In this document: piece by piece, positions 5,805 through 53,041 of the stretch
Position numbering within the stretch: the first letter of the stretch is position 1
Layout of the letters: each line of letters starts with the position of its first letter
Source: Nemertoderma westbladi
Lineage: Eukaryota; Animalia; Xenacoelomorpha
DNA: 64,000 nucleotides
Assembly: GCA_032718475.1 (NCBI GenBank)
Contig: JAUCBJ010003590.1
Coordinates: 1-64,000, forward strand
Direction: 5' to 3'
Made by a program: the position numbers and the translations under genes
The notes under the pieces: generated by a model
Seen by the model: only the letters and a program-made list of their open reading frames with translations
Told to the model about the DNA's origin: nothing
Databases searched by the model: none

Positions 5805-5913
5805 ATTTTTGTTATTTTCCCGGTTATTTTGCCCTTGGAGAAGGATACCCTCGGGCCTGCGGCCCTTGGGAATCCTTCTCCGAGGGCAAAATTACCGGGA
5901 AAATAACAAAATA
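5805..5913. repeat. Long imperfect palindrome (MITE-like hairpin)
   Basis: TTTTGTTATTTTCCCGGTTATTTTGCCCTTGGAGAAGGATACCCTCGGGCC-TGC-GGCCCTTGGGAATCCTTCTCCGAGGGCAAAATTACCGGGAAAATAACAAAA; ~50 bp arms with few mismatches. Confidence 0.85.
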
Positions 5914-15344: not shown

Positions 15345-18300
15345 ATGTCTGATACTAAGCAGAACCTGTCAGACAGTTTATTAGATGTAACTATCTGCGA
15401 CTCAGATAGAGGCGTAGAACCTTCTAGTCGTAAGTTCAGTTCACCTCCCACTGTGAGGAAAGTCATCCCTCCAGTAGTAATAAAAGAACCTAGGCTGGTC
15501 CAACATCGTAGGTCTATCATAGGCACTCGAGCTCAGGTCAAACGGGACCAAGAAGCAGCGGAACAGCAACAACCCGCGAGCCAAGAACTTACTTCTCAAC
15601 GGCCCGATAGCTCCAGTAGTGAAGATACGGTAGAACTGACACCCGAACGCGGAGCAAGGATGATGGATGAGGCTTATTCAGATCCCCTTCTCATCCTTCC
15701 TGCAGCCGTACTCACTAGGTTATTGATCGCTGTGGAAGAACACCAGATCGATTGGGCGAGAAGCCAGCGTACAACTAGAGATAGTTATGCGGGATACACG
15801 AGTGAAGAACTGAAGTCTATTGTCGAGTCGCAATGGAACTTCCCCGGACCCGGACTCCCGTTTGATTTATCAGAAGCTGCCTGGGAAGACATACACCGGA
15901 TGGGAGTAGCCAAGGAAACCATCGATCCAGCTGTGTGGAAGAGGTCCGCAGCCGGATACGCACAGGGATTCTTCAGCTCTATAGAGCGATTAAAAGAACA
16001 ACTGTTTCATCAACCTCAAGGACCTCAAGAGCAGGGATTGCTGCTTTATCAAGTTAGAGAAAGAATTCTACGAATCAGGCTAATCTTATCGGCCTTTGAG
16101 GAGGCTTCTAAACGAAGACAAGACACGTCGTTGCAAGTCGCCGTAAAGACTTGGTTTCAAAGGGTGAATCTCCAGGTTCAAGGAACAGCTCAGTGGAAAG
16201 CTCAGCTAGAGGAGCGATCAACCCATGGAGAATCAACAGACGCTACTTTTTCCCAAGTGGAAAGTGAAGCGACGGCAGAGAAACCGCATAAGAGGGATGC
16301 CATTGACATCTATCTGTCAGACTATCAACGTTTTTTAGGTGATGACGAATTGAGGAGAAGGTTAGAGGGGCTTACCCCTAATAGTGAAGGAACCAAGCTT
16401 GTGCTGGATGCCATCGATGTGGAAATGAGAGCTGCGAACCAGGCTAAATTTGATGAACAACTCCGCATCACACGAGTCCAGGAGGAGCAAATCAAGAAAA
16501 AACGTATAGAAGACAGAAAGACAGCGGCAGTGACAGCAGCAGTGGCAGCGGCAGAAGCAGAAAGAAAAGCGGCAGTGGCAGCGGCAGAGGCAGAGGCAGA
16601 AGCCGAAAGAAAGGCGGCAGAGGCAGATGCAGAAGCCGAAAGAAAAGTGGCAGCGGCAGCGGCCGAAGCAGAAAGAAAGACGGCTGTAACAGCGGTCGAG
16701 GCAGTAGCAGAAGCAGAACGGAGAGCTTCCGAAGAAACCACCCAATTAGAATTGGAAAACATTCAGGAGAATCAAGACTGCATAAATAAACAGTTAACAG
16801 CTAGTAATATGCAGATGATGAATCGATCTACTCCCAAAAGACAGGGATATACATCATCTGAGGAAAGCGATACCACCGATACTGAAGGCAAAGGAAATAG
16901 ATCTCGTCTAAGCAGACGTAAAAGAACATTCCACCGTCAGAAATTGCCTGATTTGCCTCCAGCTGTTAGAAGGCAACTAAATAACACCAACTTAGGTAGT
17001 ACAGAGCCCACAGACCAAATAATTAAAATAGAAAGACTCCCTACTATAGTAGATGAGCCTGAAATAATTAGGCCTGTTCTTGAAATCACCCCTTCGGTGA
17101 TAGACACACCTGTGCTCCCTGAAACTACCTCTAAATTCCCTCTGCATAGCACTAAGCTACCTGTGCCCCGTAGAACTGCCCAGGGGACAGTTCAGGTCCT
17201 GGACCCCGAGCGAAATATTCATAATTTGTCGCCCGTTGTCCCTCGTCCGCCCGCTACAACGTTGGCGACTCCCGCTTCGGCGGTCGAATGGGTGGACGAG
17301 AGACGGCGGGGGATGGATATCCTGCTCGGGCAGATGCAGGAGACTGTCCAGCAATTCAAGGGCACAGTAAGGGAAAGTAGGCTAGAGTTGCAAGAAGTGC
17401 AGCAAAGTATCGCGCTAGAACGCGATAAATTAGTAAATACTCAAAAGGGTATACCGCCACCCTCTGTAACAATGTGTCAACCTGTTAGGTCTGAAGTATC
17501 TCATGCGCAAGGTGTGGAGCCTACACGCATATATACTGCTAGCGAAGTAGAAACTCCTATAGTGAACCCTATTAAGGGTAATTATAGACCTGTTGATAAT
17601 GATATTCCCTATAATCCGAGAAATTTATATACCGATAACTCGATATTGAATAACACGATGGCCCAAGAAAGTTTTACGCGTCAAATGGCTAGAACCGAAG
17701 CCCGGCAAGCAGTAAAGGTGGGAGAGATCGTCAAGTTCAATGGAGATGAGATGAAATGGTTACCTTTTAATGAATATTACAAAGATAACATACAGAACTC
17801 TGTACTATCTAATGGAGAGAAACTTAGATTCCTCATCGAGTGCTTGGAAGGATCTCCCAAGTTAATGGCGTTAAAGTTTATTGGACATCCAGATGGATTA
17901 AGACAAGTTTGGGATACACTAAACATCAGGTATGGTAATAGGAATAACATAGCTGGGTATTTGTATGCAAAGTTGGTAGCGCCCCGAAAGTTTATTAGCA
18001 CCGGGATTATAGAGTTTTCCGATGAGATTCAGGAGATCTGTCGACAATTAGATTGGCTAGGTAAGTCTCATGAGTATCAGAATTCTATGGTTGTAGGAGC
18101 CTTAGCATCTACTTTGCCCAAGGGTGGAGTAGGTACACGCTGGGACAAGAAGGTGTTATATATGATGGAACAACAACAACGAGACCCTACCATGGCTGAT
18201 CTCATGTCATTCTTGGATAGCGAGGTGAAATTACAGCTCATAAAGCAGTCCAGAGAGAAGACAGCGGAAAGTAAGGTAAGTGAGAAACCCGTTTCTAGGA

Positions 18301-20309: not shown

Positions 20310-21966
20310 CAACATATGGAGTGGGTGTGTGACTCTATTATTTTATATTATTTTATTATTTTTATATTTCTGTATGTATTACTATGTAATTTTATTATAA
20401 TCGTTTTCTTTAATTTTATTCAGTAGAATGTTATTTTAGCGATTATTTAGTAGATTAGTGCAATATATATTCGCGTTTATTATTTAATTACGTATATTAT
20501 ATTTAGTGCGACGGCGAAGAAATAATTATTTTTTCTCTTTCCTTACTGTCCGTATTATATTATAAATACGTAACTACAGTAAGATGAAATGTCCGTACTT
20601 ATTAAAGTACAATAAAGCCACTACTATATTAAAGTATTATTGGTAGGCAGAGTATTAGGAATGCAAAGTTCAGATCCTCGTGTCTCAGCTAAACCAAGCT
20701 CTGGGTAGACCTTGGAAACGACTTGCCTCTTCACACTGACATTGCTTCGTGCGATATTGCTCTCATACCGTATATTAAATAATACATATAGTAGCGTGAT
20801 GTCCCTCTAACAGTAGCGTAAAACGCACATAAATCTGTTAAACCTTTTGACCATCTGTAATTCTAGTCGATTAAGATATCGCGGCACCCACCGATATACT
20901 TGAAAGACAAATTTTAGAATCAGTGGTTAACGTCCCCAGACAAGTTCTGGAATAAATTGGTGCCCATCTCAAATATTAATTATTTAATATTTGCAAATCT
21001 AATAAATCAAAATCTGTAAAATTCAGATCCTTCAACAATTCTAGTCAATTAAGATATCGTAGCATTTACCGATATTCTTAAAAAGACAATTGTCATAGAA
21101 TTAAGGATCTTGTGTCCCCAGACATGTTCTAGAATCAAAATATGTCAATTTAATTATCAAATAATAAAATTTCAGGGAATAAATTTAAATTCATGCCTTT
21201 TAATGAATTTAATAAATTGCCATTTTTACGCAATTTATAACATTCCCAAAATTCCATTAATTAATAGATCAAGGGAGCGGAGATTTATCGTATTATGAGT
21301 ATGAGTGTGCGAAGTCTCCCAAACATAGTCAATAGCCGATAAAATTCATAAAGTCATGTATAAAACAGGACATTGACTATTAAAGAATTACTATTAAATA
21401 ACATCCCAGATCTGTATGCATTGGAATTACCCTAATTCTACCGCTAGCTTTACATAATGTCACCATAGCAACAACCACGCTAGAATTAGAATTGAGTTAA
21501 GAGAACAATAGAAAGCTTGTCCCATTGAATAGCATAGGGAATAAATAGTGCACTGATAGTATCCAAGGATACATAATAATACAGTGACATTCTGGAAGGC
21601 ATTGACTAACGGACAAGTGACCCGAGTGTGTGTAATTTGTGACAAGTTGTGTGTGTGGTATTTGTGAGTTTATAGGCGAATGTTACTACTAAGGTGTGTT
21701 TACAGTAGCGAGTCGCAATTGTGAAAGTAACCCTAACTCTCCAGTAAGAACCTGAGGTGTATCTAAGCCTTTGGGACGGACAGTCGAGTGACTTGTGCCG
21801 GTTGTCGTTGTCGTTGTGCGGCTACGTCGTTGGCGAAAGTACAGCGGCGACGACACATCGGCGCTGAGGATCTCGTACTGTCCGGGGGTTGATTGGGGTA
21901 GGCAGCGACGCCCGCTCGCCTAAATATAAACTCATTATAATATGGATAAACTCATATATAGCAGAT

Positions 21967-23281
21967 ATGACGGAGTTGATAGAAGATGGTCTTAGTATCG
22001 GGGAGCGATATACTCTACTTTTACAAGCGTTTGTTGATAGCTTAATACGCGGCGACGTTAGTCCAACTGCTGCGGAGGACGATGGTCGTTATATCGAACC
22101 GCCAATGTCCCAAGAGCAGCTCGCACGAGTTGGACTATAGAAAATTCGCTGCTCGATATACGCAGCGTAATGGTACGTATATGGTCTTCTTAACTACTGG
22201 TCATCCTATCGATTTACATAATACGGACTATGTCGACTATATATCCTGCCCAGCGGAGTCGGAATATAAACTGAAATTCGAATGCGAAAATTCTATTCGA
22301 AATCGACTCGAAAGAAAAGACACTAAAGAAACAAATAAACGCGGTAACTCCAACGTATATTTGGAATTCTTGATAGAAGCATTGTAACAACAAATAAATA
22401 TCACCCGCGTTTCCCCTACCAGACGTGCGTCTTTGGTATTATTACGATAAATGCCCTAGACCCAACTAATAAACGGAAAGACATAAACATCCACGGAAAC
22501 GTTGTGTTAAACACAGTTGTGCTCGTTATATTTACTGGAGTTTCGAGCGGAACTTGTTTGACGTATCACCTATGCTCACTCGGCTCGAACGATCCTGGAG
22601 TAAACCTACGATCAGAGTCCCGGAATACTCGGTCAAACCTCCTCATTCCTTAGTTGGACCTCAGACCTGCGATCCTGGTGGTGTCGCGGATCCTCGCGGA
22701 CTGTATTCACTGTTCAAAGATCTAGTGCTACCCTAACAATTAATCGGTAACACTCCGACAGTGATTTCTAGCTAGCCGCCCATCTTACCTAGCCGGATTG
22801 TGACGCGGACACCTAATATCACTATCCAACCGTATGGTCGTTCCCGTTTAACGCGATACAACCCTTCATCAAGGTGAAGGAGAGCGTTGTACGAAACGAG
22901 TTAAACGCTATTCTATAACCTGCGTTTGTTCAGATAAACGTAAGTTATAACAGTAAGTCCAATCGATAAACGAATTGGCCTTATCTCAGTTCGATTGGGA
23001 AATCTCGAATCTCTAAGAAGATATCAAGCTTAGAAAACCCTATTCTCTGCGAGAGTTTTGGATGAACGTATCCAGCTACGAGCGGAGGAAAATCAGCTCG
23101 AGGAGAAGCATATCGAAACGGCGGATACCCCGACCATAATCCTACACCTTCTGATGCAATCATATTGCACCCTTCACCCAGGATTTATAGCCCTCCTAGT
23201 AAAGTGGCTCGCCCCAAAGAGAAAAGGACTCTTGCTAGCCTCAAAAAACTGCGTAAACGCCGTCTGCGTAAGAAAGACTAA
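21967..23281 (+). pseudogene. Decayed accessory ORF of unknown function in the env-like position (copy 1)
   Basis: ORF fragments at 21889-23333 align with those at 37629-39157 in copy 2; one frame ends with the basic tail KEKRTLASLKKLRKRRLRKKD*. Confidence 0.6.
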
Positions 23282-23359
23282 CTGTTTAGAGTATCTTTAT
23301 ATTTTAGAAACTGTGATTTGTTATATTTTATAGACTTAAATCCCATTTTCTGGGAGCGG

Positions 23360-24584
23360 TGTAAAAGCTTTTGCGTAATTAGCCGGTTATTATCCCCGTA
23401 AAGTACTCTGTGGTTGGTTTACCAGGCATAAAAAGGCCGTGTCCTTGCTGTACTGGTGTTTTGGAGGACATAAAAGCCATTTCTTCTGTATTTGTACTTT
23501 AGAGGACATAATCTGCAATTTCGTGACGTAAAAGCTCGATACTCTTGAAAACAGTGTCGCTACCATGACGACGGCTAACGGCTGATATTGCCACGTTGCC
23601 CCATAGCCCTGCCTTCTGTATCTGCCAATAGGATTTGAGTTGGTTTTGATTTTGACCTATCACAGATCTACTGAACTGAATTTCCTATCTGTATGCTCAT
23701 TCTCTGTGGTGGGTGAGATCTTTGTAGAATAAGGGTAGCTGGTATTCTTATAGTTATTCTGATCAGTTTTTAGTGTTGTTGGTGATTCTAAGCCAGGAAG
23801 AACGGCTTTAGCCCTACACTAGTAGGCTTAATTATAAGGACATATATCCGTTATCTGCATTTATCACAACATAACATACCATACCTAATCAAACAACCTG
23901 TGCATACTTTATATTGTTATACTGCTATTTACTGTCAGTTCTTCATAATATGGTTGATGAATTATTATATTTGGAATAACGATAAATAACCCCGAAACCC
24001 AATATTCTTGATATACCGAAGGTAAGAGAGAAGGGTTACATATAACAATTGTGACTTATGTTAAAGTGGTTTGAAGTGAATCTAATGTTATTTGATAGAC
24101 CCTACATGATTCGGTCCGTGTTCCTTTTATATGTGACTAAAATCAGTGAAGATCGGCAGATTAGTGTGCAGTATTGTGCAGCATTGTGTATGAGTGAGAC
24201 TGATAACGAAGCATTTCCTAAAGAATGCGCCATATATGTGAATTGTAACTAAGCCATATCGTTGTGAGTAGTTTAAGTCATAACTCTGTTTATATAGATA
24301 GAGCGCCACGTCCTAAAGGAACTGTTAATATTCCCGAAGGTGAATAATATTGTCAGAGATTATATAATACTGTCAGTCGAATAATACATTAGGCTTACAT
24401 AGCAATAAAAATTAAGCCGTCGAACCCAATCTCCCGGGTATATCCAGCGGGTGAATGATCGCGCACAGATTGGTTTCGACTAGTGTAGTGAATTAAATAC
24501 TTGTCATAGACTAAAGGTGATTTATTATCTAGAAGACATCCTAATTTGGCGGGTTAAACTGCCAAAGGTCTAAAAGCGCGAACA
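23360..24584 (+). repeat. 3' LTR of copy 1
   Basis: Starts TGTAAAAGCTTTTGCGTAATTAGCC after the PPT and ends AAAAGCGCGAACA; homologous to the copy 2 LTRs. Confidence 0.9.
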
Positions 24585-24962
24585 GGTATATCCACATTTT
24601 CCACAATCCTGCAATCCAGTTTGGCCTATCAATTATTTAAAATTTATTAGCACAACCGGTAGGCCTACCATTACCGTATTTAAATGGTATGCTACACAGT
24701 AGGCCTATAGCAGTACCGGTGCCGGTACCGGTAACGGTACTAAATTACAGAAATACCTGCTTTATACCTACATCTGTACATACAATACAGCAAAATAGTG
24801 CTATATATACTAATACCGGTACTGATAGCCTGAGAGAACAGCAGTAGAGAAACCGGTAGCATGGAACCTAACATTAGACTTTTGGAGGACATAAAAAATA
24901 AAAAAAAGGACAAAAAAAGGATTTAAACGGACAATAAAAATTATTGCGTTTAATAAATGCAA

Positions 24963-25084
24963 CATATTCTGGAACATTTTGTTTATTCCATAACAGGTAC
25001 TCTGTACCTGGGCAACAATGCAATACCTCTGTAGTCATATTATTACGTAGTTATTCATACATAAACAAAATGTTCCAGAATATG
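24963..25084. repeat. Inverted repeat with 24-bp perfect arms
   Basis: CATATTCTGGAACATTTTGTTTAT (24963-24986) versus ATAAACAAAATGTTCCAGAATATG (25061-25084). Confidence 0.75.
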
Positions 25085-26134
25085 GTGTAGTTATTTAATG
25101 GAATGAAATTGCCTCGCAGCTGCAAAACCATACAACTTTTTAACGCTCCTATCTCAGCTATTCTACGACTAAATTCAGATTTGGAATCCTTGCATTGTCC
25201 GCTTTCCAACAGTACCAACAAGTCACTAAAAGGTTGAAGAATAACTGCGGTAAAAATGGTGCAATACAGTCGGAGACGTTTTTTAAACGCTTGTAGCTAA
25301 AAAAATAAAAGCAAAAATAAAAATTGTGGCTCACCCACGGGGGAGGAGTTTAGTGATATTATCTCTGTTTCAAATTTCATGCAATCTCATTAAGATTAGT
25401 AGAAAAATTGGGGGGGGGGGGGGGGGGGGGTGTAGGCCTACTGTACCAGAATAACGACCGTAAACCGTATGCCTAAGCTGTATCAGCATACTGTAGTGCT
25501 CTTTCTTAGAAGGTGACAATTGTCAGTATGATCTGTCTGTAGGTACTGTAGAGTTCATTCATTGTAGGTCGGCCATTGAAGTATTACTGTGTAACTCTTA
25601 AATTATGGCATTTAAGGTGAAAATCAAATATTATGGATTCTAATTACATTATTATTTTTCCAATAATTATTATCAGACCCAAATAAAACTCTTCATGAAC
25701 TGCCTATTCACCCTGCTGGTTTTGCACAATAACATTGCGTTAATGAATTCATTTTGTGTATAAACTAACAATAATAATAATCGAATGTTAATTATTTAAA
25801 TAAAATCGAAAATCTTTACAAACACATACTTCGTATCATTGATTTCAAAATGGGTATTTGATTGCGTTTTGGCGCCAAATAATAAAAAAATGTTCCTTGA
25901 AACTGTATTTCATGATTCATAGGCATACACATCTGGAGTTTAATTGGTTTCATTCATTCTTTAAAATCAATTTAATAACACTTGTTAGAGTATATAAGTA
26001 CAAATATATGGCTCGCATAATATCTTTTTACTACAAGAAAAGGGTCTTGTTTTTGTTTATCAAATATATTATTAAAAAATACATAATTCCATATAGAATT
26101 ACTTATTTATTTAGAAATATTCAAACTGTTCGAG

Positions 26135-26682: not shown

Positions 26683-27476
26683 GGATAGTTATAAAACCCG
26701 AAAATTATCCCCCGCGAAATTATCAACGAAAATATCGAAATTATAAAACAATCTTCAAAATCTCGCCTTCCAGTGAGATCGGTTTTATTAGAAGGCACAC
26801 TTCACATTTTTTAATTCATAAAATACGATAATTTCGCACCATTTTCGCCCTTAAAAGTAATTTAATATCAAATACTGTCTGCTGGTTGGTTGTTGGGTGT
26901 TGGTGACCAATGGCGGCTTCGTTGAATCAATTCAGCATCAGCTGATCAGTGTTCCAGTGTATGACAAGCATGGTACATCCTGAAGGTGTAAAGAAACCGG
27001 TCCGGTCAGCCGGTACCCTAACCCAACACTGCACAGGGGCCCTACCCATTACGGCATACGGTAGGCCTACCTCCGGGTAACATGTGTACACTGTACAGTG
27101 ACTGCCAGGCAAGTGGCGCATGTGAACAGGCTGACTGATGATCGTAACTAAACAGAACTGCAGTGCAGCAGTCGCAATGCTGTAGGCCCACACTCTTGAC
27201 TGTGCTGTCCTAATTTGAGCGCCATCTTGTGGTGTTTTGCCATCATTGGAATACCCTTAAAAACCAATCAGTAGAGACAGTGTATTTGGTATTAAATTAC
27301 TTTTAGGGTCGAAAATGGGGCGAAATTATCGGATTTCATTAATTAAAAAATGTAAAGTGTGACTTCTAATAATACCGATCTTACTGGAAAGTAAGATTTT
27401 ATTCAAAGTTGTATAATTTCGACACTTCCGTTAATAATTTCGTCTTTTTCGTTATTTTCGGGTTTTATAACTATCC
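26683..27476. mobile_element. Non-autonomous Mutator-like (MULE) foldback element in CAP intron 2
   Basis: ~200 bp TIRs GGATAGTTATAAAACCCGAAAAT... / ...TTTTCGGGTTTTATAACTATCC; 9-bp TSD CACCTTTAC / CACCTGTAC. Confidence 0.85.
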
Positions 27477-28079: not shown

Positions 28080-28245
28080 GTATACTCAAACAACTAATAT
28101 CCTATTGGACATTTCAAACAGGTAATCCCAAACAACTAAGACCTGGTTTCCTATTGGACACTTCACACAGATAATCTCTAAGAATAATATTAACTGGTAT
28201 CCTGTTAGATAATTAATAATAACTGGTATCCTTCACTCAGGCAAT
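28051..28245 (+). repeat. ~43-bp degenerate tandem repeat of the exon 3 end and donor site
   Basis: CCTATTGGACA(C/T)TTCA(C/A)ACAG(G/A)TA is repeated about 3 times plus degenerate copies, and continues after the LTR insertion (~40368-40410). Confidence 0.75.
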
Positions 28246-29382
28246 TGTAAAGGCTTTTGCGTAATTAGCCGGTTATTTTCCCCGTAAAGTACTCTGTAGT
28301 TGGTTTAACCGGCATAAAAGGCCGTGTCCTTACTGTATTGTTGTTTTAGAGGACATAAAAGCCATTCCTTCCGTATGTGTACTTTAGCGGACATGATTAG
28401 CAATTCTATGACGCAATAAGCCGGATCCTCTTGAAACAGTGTAGATACCATGACGACGGCTAACAGCTGATATTGCCACGTAGAACATCTCTTTGTTCTT
28501 TGTTCTCTCTTTGTTCGGTCGACCAATCAGAGCGTTTTTTGCCTCTTTGTTGGAGATGGTGTATAGAAACTAGGGAAGTGAGTCAGTATGTGATTTTTCC
28601 ACAGCCTACAACACCGGCGTGGAACCTCCGTGTTTCAGTCTTTAGTTCAACATTAGTAGGCTTAATTATAGAACGTATATCCGTTATCTATCCATAACTT
28701 AATCATTCATACCTTAACATTACTGCTTTTGCTGTCGGTTATTCATTATATTTGTTGATGGAACATTATATTCAGAATACTGATAAACAATCAGACACCC
28801 CAATCTTCTTGATATACTAAAGGTTAGAGAGACTGGATACATATAATGATTGCGACTTACATTGAGTGGTTTGAAGTGAATCTAATGCTATTTTATAGGC
28901 CCTACATGTATTGTCTGTTATTCTCTTTGTATGTGACTAAAATTAGTAAAGGTCGGCAGATTGGTGTACAGCATTGTGCAGCATTGTGTATGATTGTGAT
29001 TGATAACGAAGCATCTCCTAAAGAATGCGCCATATACGTGAATCTATAGCCATCCCGTTGCGTCTGGTTTAAGTCATAACTCTGTTTATATATTTAGAGC
29101 GCCACGTCCTAAAGGAACTGTTAATATTTCCCGAAAGTGAATAATATTGTCAGAGATTATATATATTAAGATCAGTCGAATAATACAGTAGGTCTATCCC
29201 GCAATACGATTAGGCTTCCGAATCCAGTCTCCCTGGTATATCCAGCGGGTGAATGATCGCGCATAGACTGGTTTCGGCTAATGTAGTGTATCAAATATTT
29301 GTCGTAGGCTAAAGACGATCTATTATCTAGAAGACATCCCAATTTGGCAGGTTAAACTGCTAAAGGTCTGAAAGCGCGAACA
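28246..29382 (+). repeat. 5' LTR of copy 2 (1137 bp)
   Basis: TGTAAAGG...GCGCGAACA; near-identical to 39236-40362. Confidence 0.95.
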
Positions 29383-29395
29383 ATAACGGATATAC
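29383..29395 (+). promoter_or_regulatory. Putative self-priming primer-binding site (no TGG tRNA PBS)
   Basis: ATAACGGATATAC immediately after the LTR is the exact reverse complement of GTATATCCGTTAT at 28675-28687 inside the LTR. Confidence 0.65.
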
Positions 29396-29736
29396 CGTCT
29401 AATTGCAGGGTAGGCAATAAATACAGTTTAATATTGTTCTGGTAAGAACAATAACGGATAAAGCTTCTGTATTGCAGTAGGCAATAAAGCTGAAGTTGGA
29501 AGTACCGGCCAACCGGTACCCAGTAGGCCTGACTACCTAACCACCCGGACCGGTACCTACAGCAGTACAGGTACGGCAGTATTATTCGATTTTGATTATT
29601 ATATACCAGTAGGTCTTAATAATTAATCGGGGACGCCTGGTTTTTATTGGGATTTTACTTAGGCCTATTTCTGTCAGTTTTATTTATTTGTAGGCCAGTA
29701 TTGAGCAGAAGGCGTGTAAGCCTGCTCAGATTGTAC

Positions 29737-30320
29737 AGACAATTTGTAGGCTTGACTGTTGTCTAACTGTTGTTCAGTCTGAACGGATTGCAGTGTGTGT
29801 AGAGCATCTGTCCGATAAAGTGCTAGTTAGGAACGTAGGGGCTTCAAGTGCTGTGAGGTAAACCCCCTTTGAAAGAATAAGTCGTACTACTAGGTTAGAA
29901 CGCATACTAACTAATCATTTCGGAGTCTGCATATACTGTAGTTTATTTAGGCTGGATATTAGTCTGCCATCGTTTGGTCTGTACTTTGTTTGTGTAGTCT
30001 GTACAGGTAGCGTATAATTCTTATTTAGATAATTTGTAGGCTGGATAGTTGTCTGGCTGTTGTTAAGTCTGAGGAAATTTCGGTGTGTGTAGAGTGTATG
30101 TCCGATAAAGTGCCAGTTGGGAACGTAGGGGCTTCCAGTGCTGTGAGGTAAACCCCCTCTGAAAGAATAAGTCGTACTACTAGGTTAGAACGCATACTAA
30201 CTAACCATTTCGGAGTCTGCATATACCGTGGTTTGTTTAGGCTTGATAGTAGTCTGTCAGTATTTGGTCTGCATTTTGTTTGAGTAGTCTGTACGCGTAG
30301 CGTAATATTTATTATTCAGA
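29737..30320. repeat. Tandem duplication, 2 x ~291 bp, in the 5' UTR of copy 2
   Basis: AATTTGTAGGCT...TCCGATAAAGTGC...GAAAGAATAAGTCGTACTACTAGGTTAGAACGCATAC...GTAGCGTA occurs twice. Confidence 0.85.
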
Positions 30321-31254
30321 GTTTATGCGATTATTCGCAACATTCATATCCCCAAGTTTATTCCTACAGTAATTGTGCTTGTTATACATACCGTTATAGT
30401 TAAACTAACCCCGGTACTAGATCAGGGCTGCTTGGCGTAGGTAAAGACTGGAGATTTTGTGCTTTGGTCACTCCGGCAGATACCGTGGTTCTTTTAGCTG
30501 TTCAAGTATTTTAACTACTGATTATTTGTTGTACAAGTACTTGTACCTAATTTAGGGTTTAGTGTACAGTGCTTTCCGAAGGTAATTAGTGTAGGCAGTA
30601 TATTTGTGTTGTAAAGTGGTTAATAGGCACGTTGGTTCTGGTAGACCGCGGTAATTAACTTCTGGGTAGGAACACTCCGTGATACATAACGTAGTACTTA
30701 TAGCGATACGGCTATAAGTCGTCAGACGGTGGTATTTTCCTATCTGGACAACGCAGTATATTTACTACTACTTATTATTTTCAAATACCGTAGTAACCTG
30801 TCCGTTGTAATAACCAGATATTCTAACCCTTTGTTAGGCTGGTTAGTAGACTTCTTGTAAAATTACCCTAAAAATTCGTACTTGTAATTTTTGTGTTTAT
30901 TTAGAGATTGTAATCTCACCCCGAATTGTACGTAATTTGTAGTAATAAGTAACTTAGGTAAATTAGAATTATTTGTTTTAGTGTCCAACAAGTAGCACTT
31001 CACTGAGAGCGCACAGCTTCGGTGTAGTGACTCCCCCAGAAATAATAACATTTATTTCAAATATTGACAAAACCCATTTTAACGGGTATATATATTATAA
31101 ATCAACTTAAAAACGATTTATAAAATAGTAGGCCTGCCATACAACAATTAGGTCTCAATATCAGTTGGACTACTGCTTAAATAACGGTAATAAAGTAAGT
31201 TAAAGTAACCAAGTAACCCTTAAAATTCAGAAATTCAATTATTCTAAAATAATT

Positions 31255-31690
31255 GACATACCGGTATTTACAATAGGCTTATTATATTTATTTCTATAAA
31301 TTTTCGGCTGAAATTATACCGGTATTCTGTAATTAATTCTAGTCTGTAATTATACTTATATATATACATTATAAGTGTAAGCTGTATACCGGTATTCACG
31401 ATAGGCCTATTATATATATATAAATTTTGGCTGAAATTATACCGGTATTCTGTAATTAATTCTAGTTCATACTTATACTTATATATACTATAAGTGTAAG
31501 CTGCATACCGGTATTCACGATAGGCCTATTATATATTTAGATATACTTGTGCTAAAATTACCTACCGGTATTCTGTGACAAACCTAGTCTGTAATAATAC
31601 TTATATACTATAAGCATACCGGTATTCTAATATATTGTATATATATCACGTTACCTAGAGTGAAGATATCGGTAATTAATTACTAGGCTA
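31255..31690. repeat. ATACCGGTAT tandem array in the 5' UTR of copy 2
   Basis: Same array as at 14845-15260. Confidence 0.8.
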
Positions 31691-31761
31691 ACGGTGATAC
31701 TGAATTACTAGACTTGTTTAAACTGTAATATAGCGGTAGGCATTCAACTGTACAACCAAAC

Positions 31762-34700
31762 ATGTCTGACTCACAACAAACACTGTCAGATAGTCTCATA
31801 GAGGGTGTTAGAATGAGTATTAGACTTAGACAGCGTCTTAAAAGGATCTGTGACCAAGATCAAAGTATAGAACATCCCAGACCAAAGTCTAAGTCCCCTC
31901 CTATTGTAAGAAAGGCCATCCCTACAGTAGTAGTATCAGACCCTAGGCTAATTCAAGACCATAGGTCTGTTATAGGCACTCGGATCCAAGTCAAGCGGGA
32001 TCAAGAAGCAGCTGTCAAACAGCAGCAACATCCTAGCCAAGAACCTAGTTTTCAGCGGCCCGATAGCTCCAGTAGTTCGGATACTGTTGAGCGGACGCCC
32101 GAACGCGGAGCGAAGATGGCGGATACGGTTTATGATGAGCGGCCAACCTATGAAGAATCAACCGACGCCACTTTTTCTCAAGAAGAAAGCGAAGTGACAG
32201 CGGGGGGGCCGCAAAAGAGAGATGCTATTGATATTTATCTGTCAGACTATCAGCGATTCCTGGGAGACGAAGAGTTGAGGAGATGACTGTCTGGACTTCG
32301 CCCTAATAGTGAAGGAAACAAGCTTGTGTTGGACGCCATCGATGTGGATATGAGAGCTGCGAACCAAGCTAAATTTGATGAAAGCATCCGCCTCACTAAG
32401 GTTCAAGAAGAACAAGTAAAGAAAAAACGTATAGAAGACAGAAAGATAGCAGCAGCGGCAGTGGCAGAAGCAGAAAGAAAGGCAGCAGTGGCAGAGGCAG
32501 AAAGAAAAGCGGCCTTGGCAGCTACAGTGGCAGAGGCAGAAAGAAAAGCAGCCTTGGCAGCTACAGTGGCAGAAGCAGAAAGAAAAGCGGCTTTGGCAGC
32601 TGCAGTGGCAGAAGCAGAAAGAAAAGCGGCTATGGCAGCTGCAGTGGCAGAAGCAGAACGAAAGGCGTCTGAGGAGACTGCCCAACTAGAGTTGGAAAAT
32701 CTTCAAGAGAGGCAAGACAACTTTAATAAACAGTTAACAGCTAGTAATATGCAGATGATGAATCGATCTACTCCCAAAAGGCAAGGTTATACATCATCTG
32801 AGGAAGGCGATACCACAGATCATGAAGGCGGAGGAAATCGATCTCGCCTAAGCAGACGTAAAAGAATGTCCCACCGTCAGAAATTGCCTGATTTGCCCCC
32901 AGCTGTTCGAAGGCAACTAAATAACACAAATTTAGGTAGTACAGAACCCACAGACCAAATAATTAAAATAGAAAGACTCCCTACTATAGTAGATGAGCCT
33001 GAAATAATTAGGCCTGTTCTTGAAATCACCCCTTCGGTGATAGAGACACCTGTACTCCCGGAACCTACCTTTAAATTCCCTTTACACAGCACCAAATTAT
33101 CTGTGCCTAGAGGAACAGCCCCTGAAACAGTGTCGGTCCTGGACTCCGAGCGAAATATAAAGGATATATCGCCCGTAGTCCCTCGTCTGCCCGCTACGAC
33201 GTTGACGGATCCCGCTTCGGCGGTTGATTGGGTAGACGAGAGACGGCGGGGGATGGATATTCTCCTCGGAAAGATGGAGGAGAATCGAGTGCGTTCCTCC
33301 CAACAGGTCCGAGAGTTAGAAGGGACTGTTCAACAGTTAAAGGGAACTGTAAAGGAAAGTAGGTTAGAGTTGCAAGAAGTGCAGCAAAGTATCGCGCTAG
33401 AACGCGATAAATTAGTAAATTTACAAAAGGGTATACCACCACCCCCGGTAACAATGTGTCAACCTGTTAGGTCTGAAGTATCTCATGCGCAAGGTGTGGA
33501 GCCTACACGCATATATACTGCTAGCGAAGTAGAAACTCCTATAGTGAACCCTATTAAGGGTAATTATAGACCTGTTGATAATGATATTCCCTATAATCCG
33601 AGAAATTTATATACCGATAACTCGATATTGAATAACACGATGGCCCAAGAAAGTTTTACGCGTCAAATGGCTAGAACCGAAGCCCGGCAAGCGGTAAAGG
33701 TGGGAGAGATCGTCAAGTTCAATGGAGATGAGATGAAATGGTTACCTTTTAATGAATATTACAAAGATAACATACAGAACTCTGTACTATCTAATGGAGA
33801 GAAACTTAGATTCCTCATCGAGTGCTTGGAAGGATCTCCCAAGTTAATGGCGTTAAAGTTTATTGGACATCCAGATGGATTAAGACAAGTTTGGGATACA
33901 CTAAACATCAGGTATGGTAATAGGAATAACATAGCTGGGTATTTGTATGCAAAGTTGGTAGCGCCCCGAAAGTTTATTAGCACCGGGATTATAGAGTTTT
34001 CCGATGAGATTCAGGAGATCTGTCGACAATTAGATTGGCTAGGTAAGTCTCATGAGTATCAGAGTGCTATGGTTATTAGAGCAGTGGCTTCTACTTTACC
34101 GAAGGGTGGAGTAGGTACACGCTGGGACAAGAAAGTGTTATATATGATGGAACAACAACAACGAGACCCTACCATGGCTGATCTCATGTCATTCTTGGAT
34201 GGCGAAGTGAAATTACAGCTCATAAAGCAGTCCAGAGAGAAGACATTGGAAAGTAAGGTAAGTGAGAAACCCGTTTCTAGGAGAAAGGTAACACCAGTGT
34301 GTTATACAGACGACGGCGAAAGCCAGACTTCTCAAGGAGAGGATAGCGGGAAGGACACTGAAAGATCTTATTATGTCAATAAAATGCCTAAAGAACAGGT
34401 AAGTAAATTCAAGTCTCGAACCAATGACAGGAGAGAACAGGTAAGAAAAACTCCTCCTACGTCTCATAAGAGAATTCAGGTGAGAAAGCCCGAAGAAAGA
34501 ACGAGTGTGCACAATGTTATTCAAAATAAGGTAAGTAACATCAAACCAAAATGTGTGCTGTGTGACGGGCCCCACCGTTTGAATATGTGTGATAAATTCC
34601 TAAAGAAATCATTAAAGGATAGACGTGAAGTCATGTGGGATAAGCGGTTGTGTTATAATTGCCTCAGACGAGGACACCAACGGCGAACCTGTTACTCCGA

Positions 34701-35982
34701 CGCAAGGTGTGCAAAGTGCGGCGCAAAACATCACATCTTGTTGCACACAGAATTCGAACGAAACAGCCCGAGTCAGGTAAGTGAGTCCGAACTACATGTC
34801 CAATTCAGTGATGTGAACGACACTGACCAATATTCTGAGATGGAAGGATTCTATACGGACGAATTCTCCGACGAAAACGAATCCTGTTACCTGACAAATA
34901 CCGCAGTGTATCGAGCACTTACGTATGAAAAGGACACCGACAGCGAGCTCCCCCTAACTACTTCTGACAGACAACCATCTTGGAAAGCACCAACTTCCAA
35001 TGTAGGAATCCGAGAATTTCCTGTAGTACAGTTAAGGGTCCACGGACCTACAAGGAGTTATATAGTGAACGCCCTCCTTGACTCCGGTAGCACAGGAACA
35101 TTCATCGACAAAGAACTAGCCGAAGATATCTTTGCTGGACAACCCAAGTTCCGAACTAAGCTAAACATGTCAGGAATTATGCAGGTTTGGAAATCTACCG
35201 TAATAGCGGATTATTATGTAGGCGCGTTGTCCACCCCCCAGGATGAACTAGGAGAACACAGCATAAGGTCAGTAAAAATGGTAGCGATAAAGAACTTCGC
35301 GACCAGCCAAGTGGAACCTTATAACTGGGATGAGGACGATTTCACCCAGCAGTTTGAAATACCTAGATTCAACACCGATTACCCTGGAGTCCAAATACTC
35401 ATCGGTCAAAATGCGCATGAAGCGCTCGAGACATTGGAGAAATGGCCTGCTCAACCGCAACCACTACAAGTCTATGCGGGAAGAACTAGAGTAGGTTGAT
35501 ACTTTACTGGCCCTTCTCGTAGAACTCTTATGGAGAGATTACCAAAAGAACAGGTATATCAATTAAGTGAACGGGAAGTGGAGAGCAGTGAAGTTGACGA
35601 CCCAACTGAGGGAACACCATACTCCTCAGATAATGACGACATCGACTCCAATGTAGATCAATGGAGACATTGCCCCGAGACGATCAATCTAGCCGACATC
35701 GCTTCCAGGGGAGCAACTCCTCAAGAACTGGTAGATACTCCAGACCGGTTAGGTGGACCCGACTTCCTAAGTAAAGAAGATGAATGGCCTCCTCATCTTA
35801 CCCCGGTGAAGATTAGACAGGCCAAGGGAGCGGAGAAAGTAACACAACCACTCAATCACCCAGCTGGTCGTTTATGTTTACTGGAAAGAGACCAAAAACT
35901 GTCCGGAAACTATGGAAGGCAAGATACTCTTCCCACGACCACCTCCCTAATCCAACAAATATCTAGGGACTCCATAACGTAA
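31762..35982 (+). pseudogene. Gag-protease ORF of copy 2 with two in-frame TGA stops
   Basis: ORFs 31762-32286, 32326-35499 and 35530-35982 share one frame; stops at 32284 (Arg in copy 1) and 35497 (TGG in copy 1); same domains as copy 1. Confidence 0.9.
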
Positions 35983-37628
35983 CAACATACGGAGTGGGTG
36001 TGTGACTATATTATTTTATATTTATTTTTATTCTTTTATATTTATGTATGTATTATTATGTAATTTTATTATAATCGTTTTATTTAATTTTATTTAGTAG
36101 CATGTTATTTTAGCGATTATTTAGTAGATTAGTGCAATATATTTGCGTTTATTACGTAATTACTTATATTATATATTTAGTGCGACGGCGAGAAACAATT
36201 CTTTTTCTCTTTCCTTGCTGCCCGTATTACATTACGAATACGTAACTACAGTAAGATGAAATGTCCGTACTTATTAAAGTACAATAAAGCCACTACTATA
36301 TTCAAGTATTATTGGTAGGCAGAGTATTAGGAATGCAAAGTTCAGATCCTCGTGTCTCGGCTAAACCAAGCTCTGGGTAGACCTTGGAAACGACTTGCCT
36401 CTTCAAACTGACATTGCTTCGTGCGATATTGCTTTCATACCGTATATTAAATAATACATATAGTAGCGTGATGTCCTTTTAACAGTAGCGTATAACGCAA
36501 AATAAATCTGTTAAACCCTTTGACCATCTGTAATTCTAGTCTATTAAGATATCGCGGCACCCACCGATATACTTGAAAGACAAAATTCTAGAATCAGTGG
36601 TTAACGTCCCCAGACAAGTTCTGGAATAAACTGGTGCCCATCCTAAATATTAATTATTAATATTTACAAAATCTGTCAAATTTTAGATCCTTTAAAATTC
36701 TAGTCGATTAAGGTATCGTAGCACTTACCGATACTCTTAAAAAGACAAAATTCCTAGAATCTAGGATCCCAGTCCCCAGACACGTTCTGGAATAAAGTTA
36801 CGTCTATTTAACATTAAATAATAAAATTTACGGGAATAAATTTAAATTCATATATTTCAATGAATTTAATAAATTGTTATTTTTATACAATTTATAACAT
36901 TCCCAAAATTCCATTAATTAATAGATCACGGGAGCGGAGATTCACTCTATTAAGCGTATTTGTGTGTGAGAATCTCCAATATATAGTCAATAGCCGATAA
37001 AATTCATAAAATCATATATAGAGAGGATATTGACAATTAACGAATTACTATTAAATAGCATCCCAGATCTGTATGCATGAGAATTACCCTAATTCTACCG
37101 CTAGCTTTTCATAATGTCACCATGGCAACAACCACGCTAGAATTAGAAGTGAGTTAAAAGAACAATAGAAAGCTTGCCCCATTGAATAGCATAGTGAATA
37201 AATAGCGCACTGCTAGTATCCAAGGATACATAATAACAACGTGACATTCTGGAAGGCACTGACTAACGGACAAATGACCCGAATGTGTGATAGAATGTGT
37301 ACCATTTGTGACAGTTACGTGGAATTTGTGCGTTTGTAGGTGAATGTTACTACTAAGGTGCGTTTACAGTAGCGAGTCGCAATTGTGAAAGTAACCCTAA
37401 CTCTCCAGTAAGAACCTGAAGTACATCTAAGCCTTTGGGACGGACAGTGGAGTGACTTGTGCCGGTTATCGTTGTCGTTGTGTAGCTACATCATTGGCGA
37501 AAGCACAGCGACGACGGTACATCGGCGCTGAGGATCTTGCACTGTCCGGGGGCAGAGAGGGGTAGGCAGCGACGCCCGCTCACCTAAATATAAACTCATT
37601 ATAATATGGATAAACTTATATAGCAGAT

Positions 37629-39157
37629 ATGATTGAGTTGATAGAAGATGATCTTGGTATCAGGGAGCGATATACTCTACCTTTGCAAGCGTTTGTTGAT
37701 AGCTTGATACGTAGCGACGCTGGTCCAACTACTACGGAGGACGATGGTCGTTATATCTAACCGCCAATGTCCTGGGAACAACTTGCGCGTGGGTTGGACT
37801 GTAGAAAATTCACCGCTCGCTATACGCATCGTAATGGTACGTATATGGACTTCTTAACTACTGGTCATCCTATCGACCTACACGATACGAACGATATAGA
37901 CACCAAAAGGGAAATGGTTTATTTAAATATCATACCCAGCGGAAGCGGAAGGATAAACTGAGACTCGAACACGAAAACTCTATTCGAAACCGACTCGAAA
38001 GTGCAGATGTCGAAGAGCCGGATAAACGCAGCGACTTCACCAAATACCTGGAATTCTTGAGAGAAACCTATCTCGATATTACCAGTCAACAGAATCTAGA
38101 AACTCGATATCCTCAAGGTATACATCATGACCGCATGGTAGAACTCAAACGGCTCTATTCCACTATGATGTATCTTACCGCCGATCGACCGCTACCTGTT
38201 GTACCGGATAGCTTCGAACGAATGGAGGAATATTGTAAGCTGGAGAAAGATCACTCGCGTTTCCCCTACAAGACGTGCGTTTTTGGTATTATTGCGATGA
38301 ATGTCCAAGACCCAACCAACAAACGGAATGACATAAACATCCGCGGAGACGTTGCTTTAAACACGGTTTTACTCGCTATATTTACGGGAGTTTCGAGCGA
38401 AACTTGTTCGATGTATCACCTACGCTCGTTCGACTCAGACGATCTTTAAATAAACCAATGATCAGAGTTTCAGAATACTCGATCAGATCTCCTCATTCCC
38501 TAGTGTGTAGTGAGACCTCAGACTCTTGATCCTATTGGTATGACGGATCCTCCCGAGCTGTACTCACTACTCAAAGATCTAGTGTTACCTGAACAATTAG
38601 TCGGTGGCACCCCGGTTGTGGGCTTCCTAGATATTAGCCCATACTACCTAGCCGGATTGGGACGCGGACATTTAATATCGCCGTTTAACCCTTACCATCG
38701 TCCCGGCTTAACACGATATAACCTGTCACCAAAGTGGCGGAGAGCGTTGTACCAAATGAGTTAGACGCCATTCTACAAAGATCAGAAAAGGAACTTACGC
38801 TTGTTCAGATAAACGTAAATTGCACTAGCAAGTCCAAGCGGTAAACAAAGTAACTTTATCTAAGTTCGATCGGGAAATCCAGAATCTCTAAGAAGTTATC
38901 GAACTTGGACGATCCTATTCTCTGCGAGAGTTTTTGGATGAACGTATCCAGCTACGAGCGGAGGAAAATCAGCTCGAGGAGAAGCATATCGAAACGGCGG
39001 ATACCTCGACCATAATCCTACACCTTCTGATGCAAGCATATTGCACCCTTCACCCAGGAGTTATGGCCCTCCTAGTAAAGTGGCTCCCCCCAAAGAGAAA
39101 AGGACTCTTGCTAGCCTCAAAAAACTGCGTAAACGCCGTCCTCGTAAGAAAGACTAA
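37629..39157 (+). pseudogene. Decayed accessory ORF (~500 codons) of unknown function (copy 2)
   Basis: MIELIEDDLG..., fragments 37767-37961, 38057-38449, 38510-38764 and 38934-39209; terminal basic peptide KKLRKRRPRKKD*. Confidence 0.6.
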
Positions 39158-39235
39158 CTGTTTAGAGTATCTTTATATTTTAGAAACTGTGATTTGTTAT
39201 ATTTTATAGACTTAAATCCCATTTTCTGGGAGCGG

Positions 39236-40362
39236 TGTAAAGGCTTTTGCGTAATTAGCCGGTTATTTTCCCCGTAAAGTACTCTGTAGTTGGTTTAACC
39301 GGCATAAAAGGCCGTGTCCTTACTGTATTGTTGTTTTAGAGGACATAAAAGCCATTTCTTCTGTATGTGTACTTTAGCGGACATGATTAGCAATTCTATG
39401 ACGCAATAAGCCGGATCCTCTTGAAACAGTGTAGATACCATGACGACGGCTAACAGCTGATATTGCCACGTAGAACATCTCTTTGTTCTTTGTTCTCTCT
39501 TTGTTCGGTCGACCAATCAGAGCGTTTTTTGCCTCTGTGTTGGAGATGGTGTATAGAAACTAGGGAAGTGAGTCAGTATGTGATTTTTCCACAGCCTACA
39601 ACACCGGCGTGGAACCTCCGTGTTTCAGTCTTTAGTTCAACATTAGTAGGCTTAATTATAGAACGTATATCCGTTATCTATCCATAACTTAATCATTCAT
39701 ACCTTAACATTACTGCTTTTGCTGTCGGTTATTCATTATATTTGTTGATGGAACATTATATTCGGAATACTGATAAACAATCAGACACCCCAATCTTCTT
39801 GATATACTAAAGGTTAGAGAGACCGGATACATATAACGATTGCGACTTACATTGAGTGGTTTGAAGTGAATCTAATGCTATTTTATAGGCTGTACATGTA
39901 TTGTCTGTTATTCTCTTTGTATGTGACTAAAATTAGTAAAGGTCGGCAGATTGGTGTGCAGCATTGTGTATTATTGTGATTGATAACGAAGCATCTCCTA
40001 AAGAATGCGCCATATACGTGAATCTATAGCCATCCCGTTGCGTCTGGTTTAAGTCATAACTCTGTTTATATATTTAGAGCGCCACGTCCTAAAGGAACTG
40101 TTAATATTTCCCGAAAGTGAATAATATTGTCAGAGATTATATATATTAAGATCAGTCGAATAATACAGTAGGTCTATCCCGCAATACGATTAGGCTTCCG
40201 AATCCAGTCTCCCGGGTATATCCAGCGGGTGAATGATCGCGCATAGACTGGTTTCGGCTAATGTAGTGTATCAAATATTTGTCGTAGGCTAAAGACGAAC
40301 TATTATCTAGAAGACTTCCCAATTTGGCAGGTTAAACTGCTAAAGGTCTGAAAGCGCGAACA
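39236..40362 (+). repeat. 3' LTR of copy 2 (1127 bp)
   Basis: Near-identical to the 5' LTR; followed by TSD GCAAT. Confidence 0.95.
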
Positions 40363-41157
40363 GCAATCTCAAAGATCTGGAATACTATTGAAAACTTCAC
40401 TCACTCAAAATATCTAAAACGAAAGAAGGGCCCTAAGATTATTCATCACAGTTGTTACATTAACTGCAATTAAGTAAATAAAGAGGCAACTAATTTCATT
40501 TAAATTTCTAAACATTTTATTTAAGATAAATATTAAGTATTGAGAGCACCGTTAAGTTTAAATAATGTAACAAAATTACGTACTGTACATCATTGTACAG
40601 TATGAAGGAAACTATTCCCCGATAAGACCCGGTTGTTTATTTATACAGTACAAACCTCCCTCGCTACGCTCGCTCATTACATAAATACACTCAGTTCATA
40701 ACGTTGAAATGTGCTACAATGATAGACTGTAAATAAATACTGATGTATTCCATATCACTGTGGGAAACTAATAAGGTAATTGTAGGGCACAGAAACGATG
40801 GCGTTTTTCGCAATTTTCGCAAAAAACGTAAATGAAACCTCGCATTCTTCTTATAGGCCACCTGTAGTTACTGTAATTTATAGTTCGCATTCTATGTATT
40901 TATGCATTAATGCATACAGTAGGCCTACGTACAGTAGAATAGGCCTACTGCGGGGCGGGCAAGTCGCCTTGGGGCGGGTATATACAACATAGTATTATAC
41001 CCGTGGTACTGTAGGACTATTTACTAGATACTGCGTAAGTATTGTATGCATTAATTACTACCTTAGCACAACGGTAGACTGATTGACCCCCCCCCCCCCC
41101 CCCCCCCCTCTCTATTGTCTTATTATTCCTAATGGTAGGTCTTTCTTTCCGTACCAG

Positions 41158-41439: not shown

Positions 41440-42531
41440 CGATGATACTGTACTGTACGGTAGGCCTACAATCAAACTTAATAAAGAATATGGGTAATGG
41501 TGTCATAGAGTAATAATTAATTTTATTATATTCTGTATGTAGTGTTGTCATAATAAGTATAACTATTCAGCTAATTGTATGTAGGCCTACTGTAGGTGGG
41601 CCTACTACACCTTATATTATCTTGGTGTAGTTTCTTTACACACAATCGTAACTCGCAACACAACATCTGTTATTGACATACTGTAATTGTTATGCACAAA
41701 AATTGTGTTTATTGTACACCCGCCAATGCTATTTGGTTTTCGCATCAAATTTATTTCCCACGAAAGCAGCTGGTATCTAGCGGCTGAAAAACGAACACTT
41801 TATTGTGAACAAATAAAGTAATGTTGAATTTTAATTTCAAAGTAATTTCCATGACATTGATTTTTTATATTAGCTATAGATACGACCCGCTAAGCTGCTG
41901 CAAAGCCCCTTAATTTAGTGGGCCAGTTATTTCTCTTAGATAGAACCCCTGTTTATATTTATTTAAAGCCCCTATTTAATAGTTCTAGCTCTTGTGCGAA
42001 ATCCAGGCTGGTTCTGTAAAACTGTTTTTCATTGTTTTAAAATCTTTCTTACTTAATAATAACATATATAATAAACTGATTAGCATTTAGGTAAATATGA
42101 TAATTATAGTTCAGTACATAATAATTAACGGTATAAGGCACCAGATCACGGTACCGGTAAGTATAACACAGACAGACACAGTCTGTGTATGAAAATGACT
42201 GAAAAGCAGAACAAGGAAACGACACGTCCTTCTGTAGTTGGTTAGTAAGAATATAATCAAGCAGTCAGCCATATGTATAGTAAAAATATGTGGTACTAAA
42301 AAATTACTTCAATCCTAAATACAGTATAATTATTATCTGTAATTTAGGACATACTCCCGCCACCGAACAAATAAACGCTTCTAGCTAAATAATTAGGCTC
42401 TATAAAAATTAATATTTTCAAATTATATATATATATATAGCCTTCGTCAAAATAACATGCAAAACAAAATGAACCATATAATGTAACAAAATAATATTTG
42501 GTTATAAAATATTTCTCAACGGGATAAGTAA

Positions 42532-47718: not shown

Positions 47719-48424
47719 TGAGATTTAGTTTAGGCTATATCACAGAATAATAATCAGATAATGGCTCAGTAAATTGCGTTGTGTTTATAAATTAAAATAT
47801 TATTTATATTATACTGGTATTGCGTACCGGTATTCAATATTCATTATTCCAGTAGGCCTATCAGTCGGGCACTTTTTTTTTTTTTTTTTTTTTTTTCTTC
47901 TTATAAAAAAGCCCTCTTGCCGATTAATTACATATTTATGTTTATTGCACCACGGACACAGATAAATGTTAAATGAAACAAAAGCACACTTTGTTATCCA
48001 CTGTACGTGATACACATCACACACACCAAACGCACCACACGCACAAAAGCACCACACTCACAAACGCACCCAAACCAAAAAAATGAGATTAGGGCATCAA
48101 AAGTAAACCAGCCCTGACCGTTGCTAGTACCATTAATCAGATCGAAATTTATTGTTAAATTCAGAAGTTATGAACGAGTAGTGTGTAAAATAAGTAAAAA
48201 TTAAGATTAAAAGATATGTGTTGCAATCCGCAAGATATAAAAGTTTAAAGGGGCAAATATTTGGAAGAATAAGTAAACCACTAACAAAAATTAAAAAAGT
48301 CTAAATTCTAGAATTGTTTTGCACTTTATTATACATATTTTGTTCTGTTCCACTATGTTATTACTGTAATTTAAAACCTGAAAGAGAAAACCAGTGGTAT
48401 GTTGAGACGGACGTACAGACTACC

Positions 48425-52923: not shown

Positions 52924-53041
52924 CATTGCCATGCATTTTACATGCACTAGTCAGAACCTGTCGTCGAGATTAATAAATTGGTTTGGGCTGTAAAAAGCGC
53001 AACCGCAATTTGATGCGTTAGCTTGGTAGAAGATCTTACAA

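Follow-up and report, generated by a model that had tools for sequence, protein, structure and literature searches.

A BEL/Pao-derived LTR element of Nemertoderma westbladi that likely primes reverse transcription from its own RNA

Element anatomy and coding content

We analyzed a stretch of 64,000 nucleotides from Nemertoderma westbladi (assembly GCA_032718475.1, contig JAUCBJ010003590.1, forward strand), here called the window. A BEL/Pao LTR element, referred to as copy 2, occupies positions 28246 to 40362 of its plus strand, on which all copy 2 features given below also lie. Its 5' LTR of 1,137 bp (28246 to 29382) and its 3' LTR (39236 to 40362) both have TG..CA ends and are 98.9% identical (1,115 matches, 12 mismatches, and 10 gap columns that form one 10-base gap). 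The element is flanked by a GCAAT target site duplication (28241 to 28245 on the left and 40363 to 40367 on the right), and a purine-rich tract (39228 to 39235) precedes the 3' LTR. A long frame with one in-frame stop (31729 to 35496) encodes a BEL/Pao gag, with DUF1759 and three zinc knuckles, followed by an aspartic protease. The DUF1759 match (PF03564) had an E value of 9e-11, and all eight longer relatives of this frame were BEL/Pao polyproteins (23 to 37% identity), each containing PF05380 as well as PF03564. The remainder of pol is a short remnant of 49 residues from behind the RNase H region (35647 to 35790); reverse transcriptase (RT) and integrase were not found in copy 2, and the same gap is present in copy 1, described below.

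Copy 2 is a young, recently inserted BEL/Pao derivative that is non-autonomous, because its pol holds only the protease and the 49-residue remnant, and it is not a full member of the Belpaoviridae. It has the TG..CA LTRs, target duplication, purine tract, BEL-type Gag (DUF1759 and a triple Cys-His box), and protease of this group but lacks a PR-RT-RH-IN pol and, behind its 5' LTR, a TGG-type tRNA primer-binding site. Given that the insertion is young, with an intact target duplication, despite the absence of RT and integrase, we infer that its cis signals worked with enzymes supplied from elsewhere. Public DNA runs contain the family in abundance: in two of them, examined as contigs for further copies, we found 11,621 contigs (run X1, possibly the source of the window) and 3,137 contigs (run X3).

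Copy 1 is a chimera of differing 5' and 3' LTR types and has no matching target duplication. Its 5' LTR (12483 to 13727, plus strand) is ca. 72% identical to the copy 2 LTR, and its 3' LTR (23360 to 24584, plus strand) is ca. 80% identical. The N-terminal region of gag carries a 39-nt tandem repeat rich in Ala, Glu, Arg, and Lys codons, the copy number of which differs between copy 2 (32447 to 32680) and copy 1 (16546 to 16728). In both copies, the stretch that separates the pol remnant from the 3' LTR also holds additional, broken frames (37600 to 39200 and 21870 to 23330, respectively); a Pfam scan of one of them gave no match.

Elsewhere in the window, a second BEL element (41993 to 55137) served as a control. 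It apparently contains a nested frame of a non-LTR-type RT (48425 to 51826, minus strand). Another LINE-like end lies at 62980 to 64000, and three inverted-repeat elements, probably small DNA transposons, are found at 26683 to 27476, 24943 to 25104, and 5800 to 5918.

The primer-binding position and its LTR complement

The primer-binding position directly after the copy 2 5' LTR (29383 to 29395) lacks TGG and is the exact reverse complement of a 13-nt segment within the LTR (28675 to 28687), the predicted self-primer, which has a second copy in the 3' LTR (39665 to 39677). The complement begins at the first base past the LTR end at 29382 (offset 0), and the primer segment lies 695 nt away from that end. 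When the copy 2 LTR was shuffled preserving dinucleotides, only 1 of 20,000 shuffles reached a match of at least 13 at offsets 0 to 5. Across the window, matches of this size in the preceding 1,137 nt were found at 48 of 62,740 positions, including the site itself, and most of the others lie in inverted-repeat elements. The accessible part of PMC6317226 predicts self-primers from an LTR complement of at least 10 bp beginning 0 to 5 bp past the LTR; by this Tf1-type measure, copy 2 has 13 bp at offset 0. In the control BEL, TGG stands one base past the 5' LTR, the target duplication is AGAGC, and the longest LTR match is 5 nt. Searches of copy 2 for tRNAs and against Rfam returned no tRNA-like sequence and no Rfam match. 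The 13-nt pairing at the exact LTR edge, first pointed out in a preliminary description of this DNA, is confirmed as a real feature. The leader also contains a local duplicate (29446 to 29463), in which the last 5 LTR bases are followed by a version of the primer site that agrees at 11 of 13 bases (from 29451).

The 12-nt core of the motif reported earlier for the 3' LTR of copy 1 is indeed there (23843 to 23854). In the 5' LTR of copy 1, the motif is changed (at 12961, with TATAAA at this position) and the sequence past the LTR end, which would hold the partner, has been lost. This changed motif is 77% identical to that of copy 2, about the LTR average of 75%, and a changed partner site matching it was not seen in the public-run contigs. 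Deletions or nested joins that start exactly at the LTR end and remove the primer site were observed in copy 1 (13727/13728) and in contigs of two runs (joint 29381 to 29605). The 3' flank of copy 1 (24585 to 24594) begins with 9 to 10 bases equal to a U5 word (29235 to 29243 in copy 2); these could pair with a portion of the primer site.

One public contig in each of X1 and X3 follows the site for 12 bases before diverging (joints at 29394), and in four contigs of each run, the LTR end is joined directly to the second-copy version of the site (29446 to 29463); those of X3 are mostly of the copy 1 3' LTR type. Over the surveyed stretch, just one variant reached at least 1%, at position 29480 (4.6% depth in X1 and 15% in X3), and the contig data therefore cannot show the site to be more conserved than its flanks. 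A short stretch searched for in public runs X4 and X5 gave no match, and a conserved 22-nt word of the LTR was not found in viral or metagenome contigs.

In predicted RNA folds, the 13-bp duplex (-16.0 kcal/mol) was part of the lowest-energy structure for all 15 choices of transcript start (28675 or upstream) and end (up to 29500), with pair probabilities of 0.4 to 1.0. When the leader was extended to 29620, the nested-only fold replaced it by LTR-leader stems that cross it; the program cannot draw crossing pairs, so the duplex and these stems never appear together. In the predicted LTR-leader stem, an LTR arm (29192 to 29205) pairs with leader positions 29402 to 29415, just 3' of the primer site (p of 0.8 to 0.98), and a second such stem joins 29170 to 29186 with 29579 to 29597. 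The LTR-leader stem alone is not significant, as it was equalled in 53 of 1,000 shuffles. On the 5' side of the primer site, another LTR arm (29255 to 29268) is predicted to pair with the LTR end (29366 to 29382); this closing stem appears in the consensus fold of three LTR types and in one of the three single-sequence folds. The order of these arms would be that of the three-duplex structure of Tf1, a suggestive likeness only; each of the two flanking duplexes can form, yet no single predicted fold contains both. The folds also contain at least seven alternative pairings of the primer site within U5 (29235 to 29243, 29286 to 29292, and 28747 to 28760), possibly competing states. If linked to the copy 1 3' LTR type, the variant at 29480 would restore a Watson-Crick pair with the corresponding arm of the LTR-leader stem, at the cost of one with the copy 2 arm; only this one pair is concerned.

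A motif scan of the LTR upstream of the 13-mer gave a candidate promoter (28523 to 28588) consisting of a CCAAT box (at 28523) and an initiator-like TCAGT (at 28583) 60 nt apart, words that we take to be promoter motifs on the basis of their consensus. The 5' LTR of copy 1 has a CCAAT and an initiator-like word with the identical 60-nt spacing. The 13-mer itself starts with TATA-like letters ca. 30 nt ahead of an initiator-like TCATTC at 28703, and the motif evidence for the transcription start is ambiguous. A donor-like word at 28823 is conserved in all three LTR types; two of them also share an acceptor-like word at 29350, which precedes the LTR end by 33 nt. Together, these words possibly delimit a second LTR intron that would shorten the loop between primer and site.

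A region near the right end of the window (61387 to 62645) is likely, but unproven, to be an LTR of a second family. It carries a variant of the motif (61777 to 61791, plus strand), and its partner (62646 to 62660, plus strand), 855 nt downstream, forms 15 bp with it, one of them a G.U pair. At the two positions where the variant departs from copy 2, the partner has changed accordingly (T-A to A-T and C-G to G.U). The preliminary description had listed an 11/13 variant at 61778 as support; it is present, and it is at chance level when taken alone, since ca. 3 matches with 2 or fewer mismatches are expected per shuffled window. Its weight comes solely from the partner found for it at 62646 to 62660; a partner of this kind exists for 33 of the 60,900 15-mers in the window. 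No homology of the region to the family LTR was detected by local alignment, blastn, tblastx, or a profile search, and the similarity of its leader to that of copy 2 was not significant (271 of 3,588). The ends of the putative LTR are nearly inverted repeats, and it ends in TA, in contrast to CA in copy 2. A 56-nt block 450 nt from the candidate (60883 to 60937) is 82% identical to the 3' internal region of the family (E value, 2e-9), with relatives in copy 2 (37062 to 37117) and copy 1 (21405 to 21460), each ahead of unexplained frames. This block also precedes three overlapping minus-strand frames with Cys/His clusters (57857 to 60129). They had no Pfam match, and an ESM Atlas search with the open reading frame at 59389 to 60129 returned nothing at 0.9.

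Split and contiguous matches in BEL/Pao relatives

We collected relatives from metagenome contigs with BEL polyproteins, obtaining 76 loci in 52 families (at 88% identity), 39 with at least 300 nt upstream. A strict test for primers assembled across a splice joint demanded a strong donor, a pyrimidine-rich acceptor, and at least 11 bp of complement at offset 0 to 3 after ACA or TCA, and it was applied to 3,713 sites. Matches of 11 to 15 bp were found in 17 of the 76 loci (14 of the 52 families), and in these the post-LTR site pairs only across a predicted GT-AG joint within the LTR. The controls gave 2 matches in 5,089 coding-region sites and 1 in 3,407 antisense sites. For most matching loci, the LTR end was set by the test itself; ends defined by repeats had split matches of 12 bp in L001, 15 bp in L003 to L005, 14 bp in L010, and 13 bp in L065 and L066, the last pair coming from relaxed scans only. 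Across the 14 related families, the letters of the site differ and each site is complementary to its own LTR, which argues against a host tRNA as the primer.

L013 has a contiguous match of 11 bp, the 3' part of which is the intron-split complement of its tree neighbor L025. L020 and L029 have contiguous matches of 10 to 12 bp only at offset 4 to 5 (at about 1118 and at 55, respectively) and represent either a third layout or degenerate copies. In L045, with a defined LTR end, the match is only 7 to 8 bp, and a 10-bp split match in L041 was read by eye. Other families had no match or too little flank. A 20-bp match in L062 and L063 was discarded, as it extends on both sides and belongs to a longer inverted repeat. 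In L028 (1066 to 1160), a relative with a split primer, the primer site is repeated several times in the leader, like the duplicate at 29446 to 29463 in copy 2. A loose TGG pattern after ACA was matched 3 times in 25 loci, never at a definable LTR end, some LTR ends lying off the contig. Scanned viral contigs yielded no BEL locus. We built trees from 529 poorly conserved columns, using 35 of the 76 loci together with 8 proteins and rooting them on the TGG-type control of the window. Copy 2 came out as the sister of a group made up of all 35 loci, P0001, and P0003 (support, 0.99); the loci had been fetched with seeds from that clade.

The 5' LTR of copy 1 may be related to this split arrangement. 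Around its changed motif lies an intron-like stretch (12926 to 13063, plus strand), the joint of which would end with the same six bases as the copy 2 primer, and copy 2 lacks both the donor and the acceptor of this stretch. A switch from a spliced to a contiguous primer between the two is possible. Changes matched on the primer and site sides were seen in the unproven second family and across the relatives, not for the copy 1 5' LTR type.

Priming mechanism, alternatives, and known systems

Together, the anatomy, the exact register, the above-chance match, and the same type of match with other letters in relatives support self-priming. We consider it likely that copy 2 primes reverse transcription by a contiguous self-primer from its own RNA, in a manner similar to Tf1, and not by a tRNA. 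Transcription would start upstream of 28675, our best guess being near 28585, and the segment at 28675 to 28687 would anneal to 29383 to 29395, with the two flanking stems giving the three-duplex layout known for Tf1. A helper element would supply RT and RNase H in trans; RNase H would cut after 28687, and the new 3' end would be extended from the last base of the LTR. The primer site would be recopied from the primer in every cycle, so that both sides stay matched. In most relatives, the same primer would be made by splicing an LTR intron, and the copy 2 family would use a contiguous one. The preliminary description had expected the start at or just upstream of 28675, a position that we do not adopt as necessary: in the split relatives, the RNA would extend beyond the pairing segment on both sides, so the start need not be there, and the CCAAT and initiator-like motifs point to one ca. 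90 nt upstream.

Among the other explanations, we regard as unlikely that the 13-mer belongs to U3, as part of a TATA region upstream of the start. Only the 3' LTR copy would then be in the RNA, and its pairing with the site would link the RNA ends, help packaging or strand transfer, or provide a primer, either derived from the 3' end or donated by a second RNA. The TATA-like beginning of the motif, its initiator-like spacing, and the presence of the same 13-mer at 39665 to 39677 fit this arrangement. However, two LTR types have, farther upstream, a CCAAT and an initiator-like motif at the shared spacing of 60 nt, and the split relatives require a pairing segment inside the spliced transcript; moreover, Tf2 has a regulated upstream start in addition to a downstream one (as far as described in the accessible text of PMC5341516). 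Splicing could also operate in copy 2 itself, the first 8 bases of the motif and the 4 that follow an acceptor-like site (29350) making 12 bp at offset 1 and the contiguous match being a by-product. Exactly this weak-donor joint (28682 to 29351) appeared in the relaxed scan, the acceptor-like site stands 33 nt before the LTR end, and the relatives are predicted to work by splicing. We nonetheless find it distinctly improbable, as the donor, GTTATC, bears little resemblance to the strong donors seen in relatives, no split match in any LTR of the window was detected by the strict scan, the acceptor is changed in the copy 1 3' LTR, and the candidate second family has no such joint and retains the offset-0 pairing through a change on both sides.

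A chance match, or the functionless fossil of one template switch, would agree with the equal matches at 48 of 62,740 window positions, the local duplication of the site, and the deletions that copy 1 and public contigs show from the LTR end onward, signs of a spot prone to rearrangement. The offset of 0 at the LTR edge, the retention of the site or motif in a second LTR type and in other copies, and the clade-wide pattern in relatives make this very unlikely. Even less credence is due to priming at the site by a host tRNA half or another small RNA, with the LTR match being secondary. Priming by tRNA is what the ICTV gives for the Belpaoviridae (PMC8742986), and priming by half-tRNAs without TGG is described for Ty1/copia lineages in the part of PMC6317226 available; against it stand the family-specific letters of the site in the 14 related families, each matching its own LTR, and the absence of any tRNA-like sequence from copy 2.

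Contiguous self-priming is thus our preferred reading for copy 2, and the earlier proposal of self-priming in a BEL/Pao element holds up as the best reading, with independent support from relatives. Copy 2 is not a one-off: relatives across the same part of the BEL/Pao tree show such a match, mostly with the complement split by a predicted intron. Copy 2 is likely the contiguous variant of a wider BEL/Pao trait that is mostly splice-built in relatives. A broader version, toward which we are tentative and lean slightly on the side of doubt, is that a whole BEL/Pao branch does without tRNA priming and has its primer made by the host spliceosome through an exon joint in the LTR, that the copy 2 family and L013 switched to contiguous primers, and that the copy 1 5' LTR, its intron-like stretch intact around a degenerate motif, represents the older spliced state next to the derived one. 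If the self-priming reading holds, self-priming would be present in all three LTR superfamilies, and in BEL/Pao, the first step of reverse transcription would be mostly tied to splicing and under host splicing control. Two RNA forms would be needed, a spliced primer and an unspliced template, and it would become clear why annotation tools based on tRNA sites miss such elements.

Within BEL/Pao, the nematode element Cer7 has reportedly been proposed to encode its own tRNA-like primer. The ICTV describes an 18-nt site for tRNA-Arg or tRNA-Gly in the Belpaoviridae and calls their replication poorly understood (PMC8742986). Self-priming is reported for Tf1/sushi elements, whereas for Tcn1 and TAR copia elements it is a prediction (PMC6317226, accessible part), and in Tf1, RNase H cleavage releases the self-primer (PMC4600332, PMC5341516, and PMC10085805, each in its available text). 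Our search of the open-access journal literature found no report of self-priming or of a splice-built primer for BEL/Pao, and neither is mentioned in the accessible portions of PMC3118150, PMC554778, PMC12440569, PMC3286476, PMC8220671, PMC3601003, and PMC5445492.

Compared with the systems described so far, copy 2 resembles Tf1, Tf2, and Tj1 (Tf1/sushi, chromoviruses of Ty3/gypsy) in lacking a tRNA site and in having post-LTR bases complementary to an upstream LTR segment, and its two predicted flanking duplexes, although not part of one predicted fold, could be arranged in the order of the Tf1 "pretzel" (both as far as covered by the available text of PMC10085805 and PMC4600332). Unlike Tf1/sushi, copy 2 has a BEL/Pao gag and protease, lacks a chromodomain integrase, and is non-autonomous; its primer segment is separated from the LTR end by 695 nt and probably does not start at the first base of the RNA, and its relatives split the primer by an intron. 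Since its proteins are BEL/Pao, copy 2 is not a Tf1/sushi member, and our claim is only that it works alike. By the same predictive criterion, it also resembles the TAR lineage (Houba as well as Osr-1, in Ty1/copia) and the Tcn1 lineage (PMC6317226, in part), although these belong to other superfamilies and to plant hosts. With the Belpaoviridae as defined by the ICTV, it shares LTR size, TG..CA ends, the 5-bp target duplication, the purine tract, a DUF1759 gag with zinc knuckles, and the protease, and it differs from them in lacking the tRNA site, RT, most of RNase H, and integrase (PMC8742986). Finally, as in the fungal GalEa copia elements, which have a conserved hairpin site and no primer-binding site, the tRNA site of copy 2 appears to be replaced by intramolecular pairing; going by the accessible text of PMC5445492, GalEa has no LTR complement and pairs as a palindrome downstream, whereas the partner in copy 2 lies inside the LTR.
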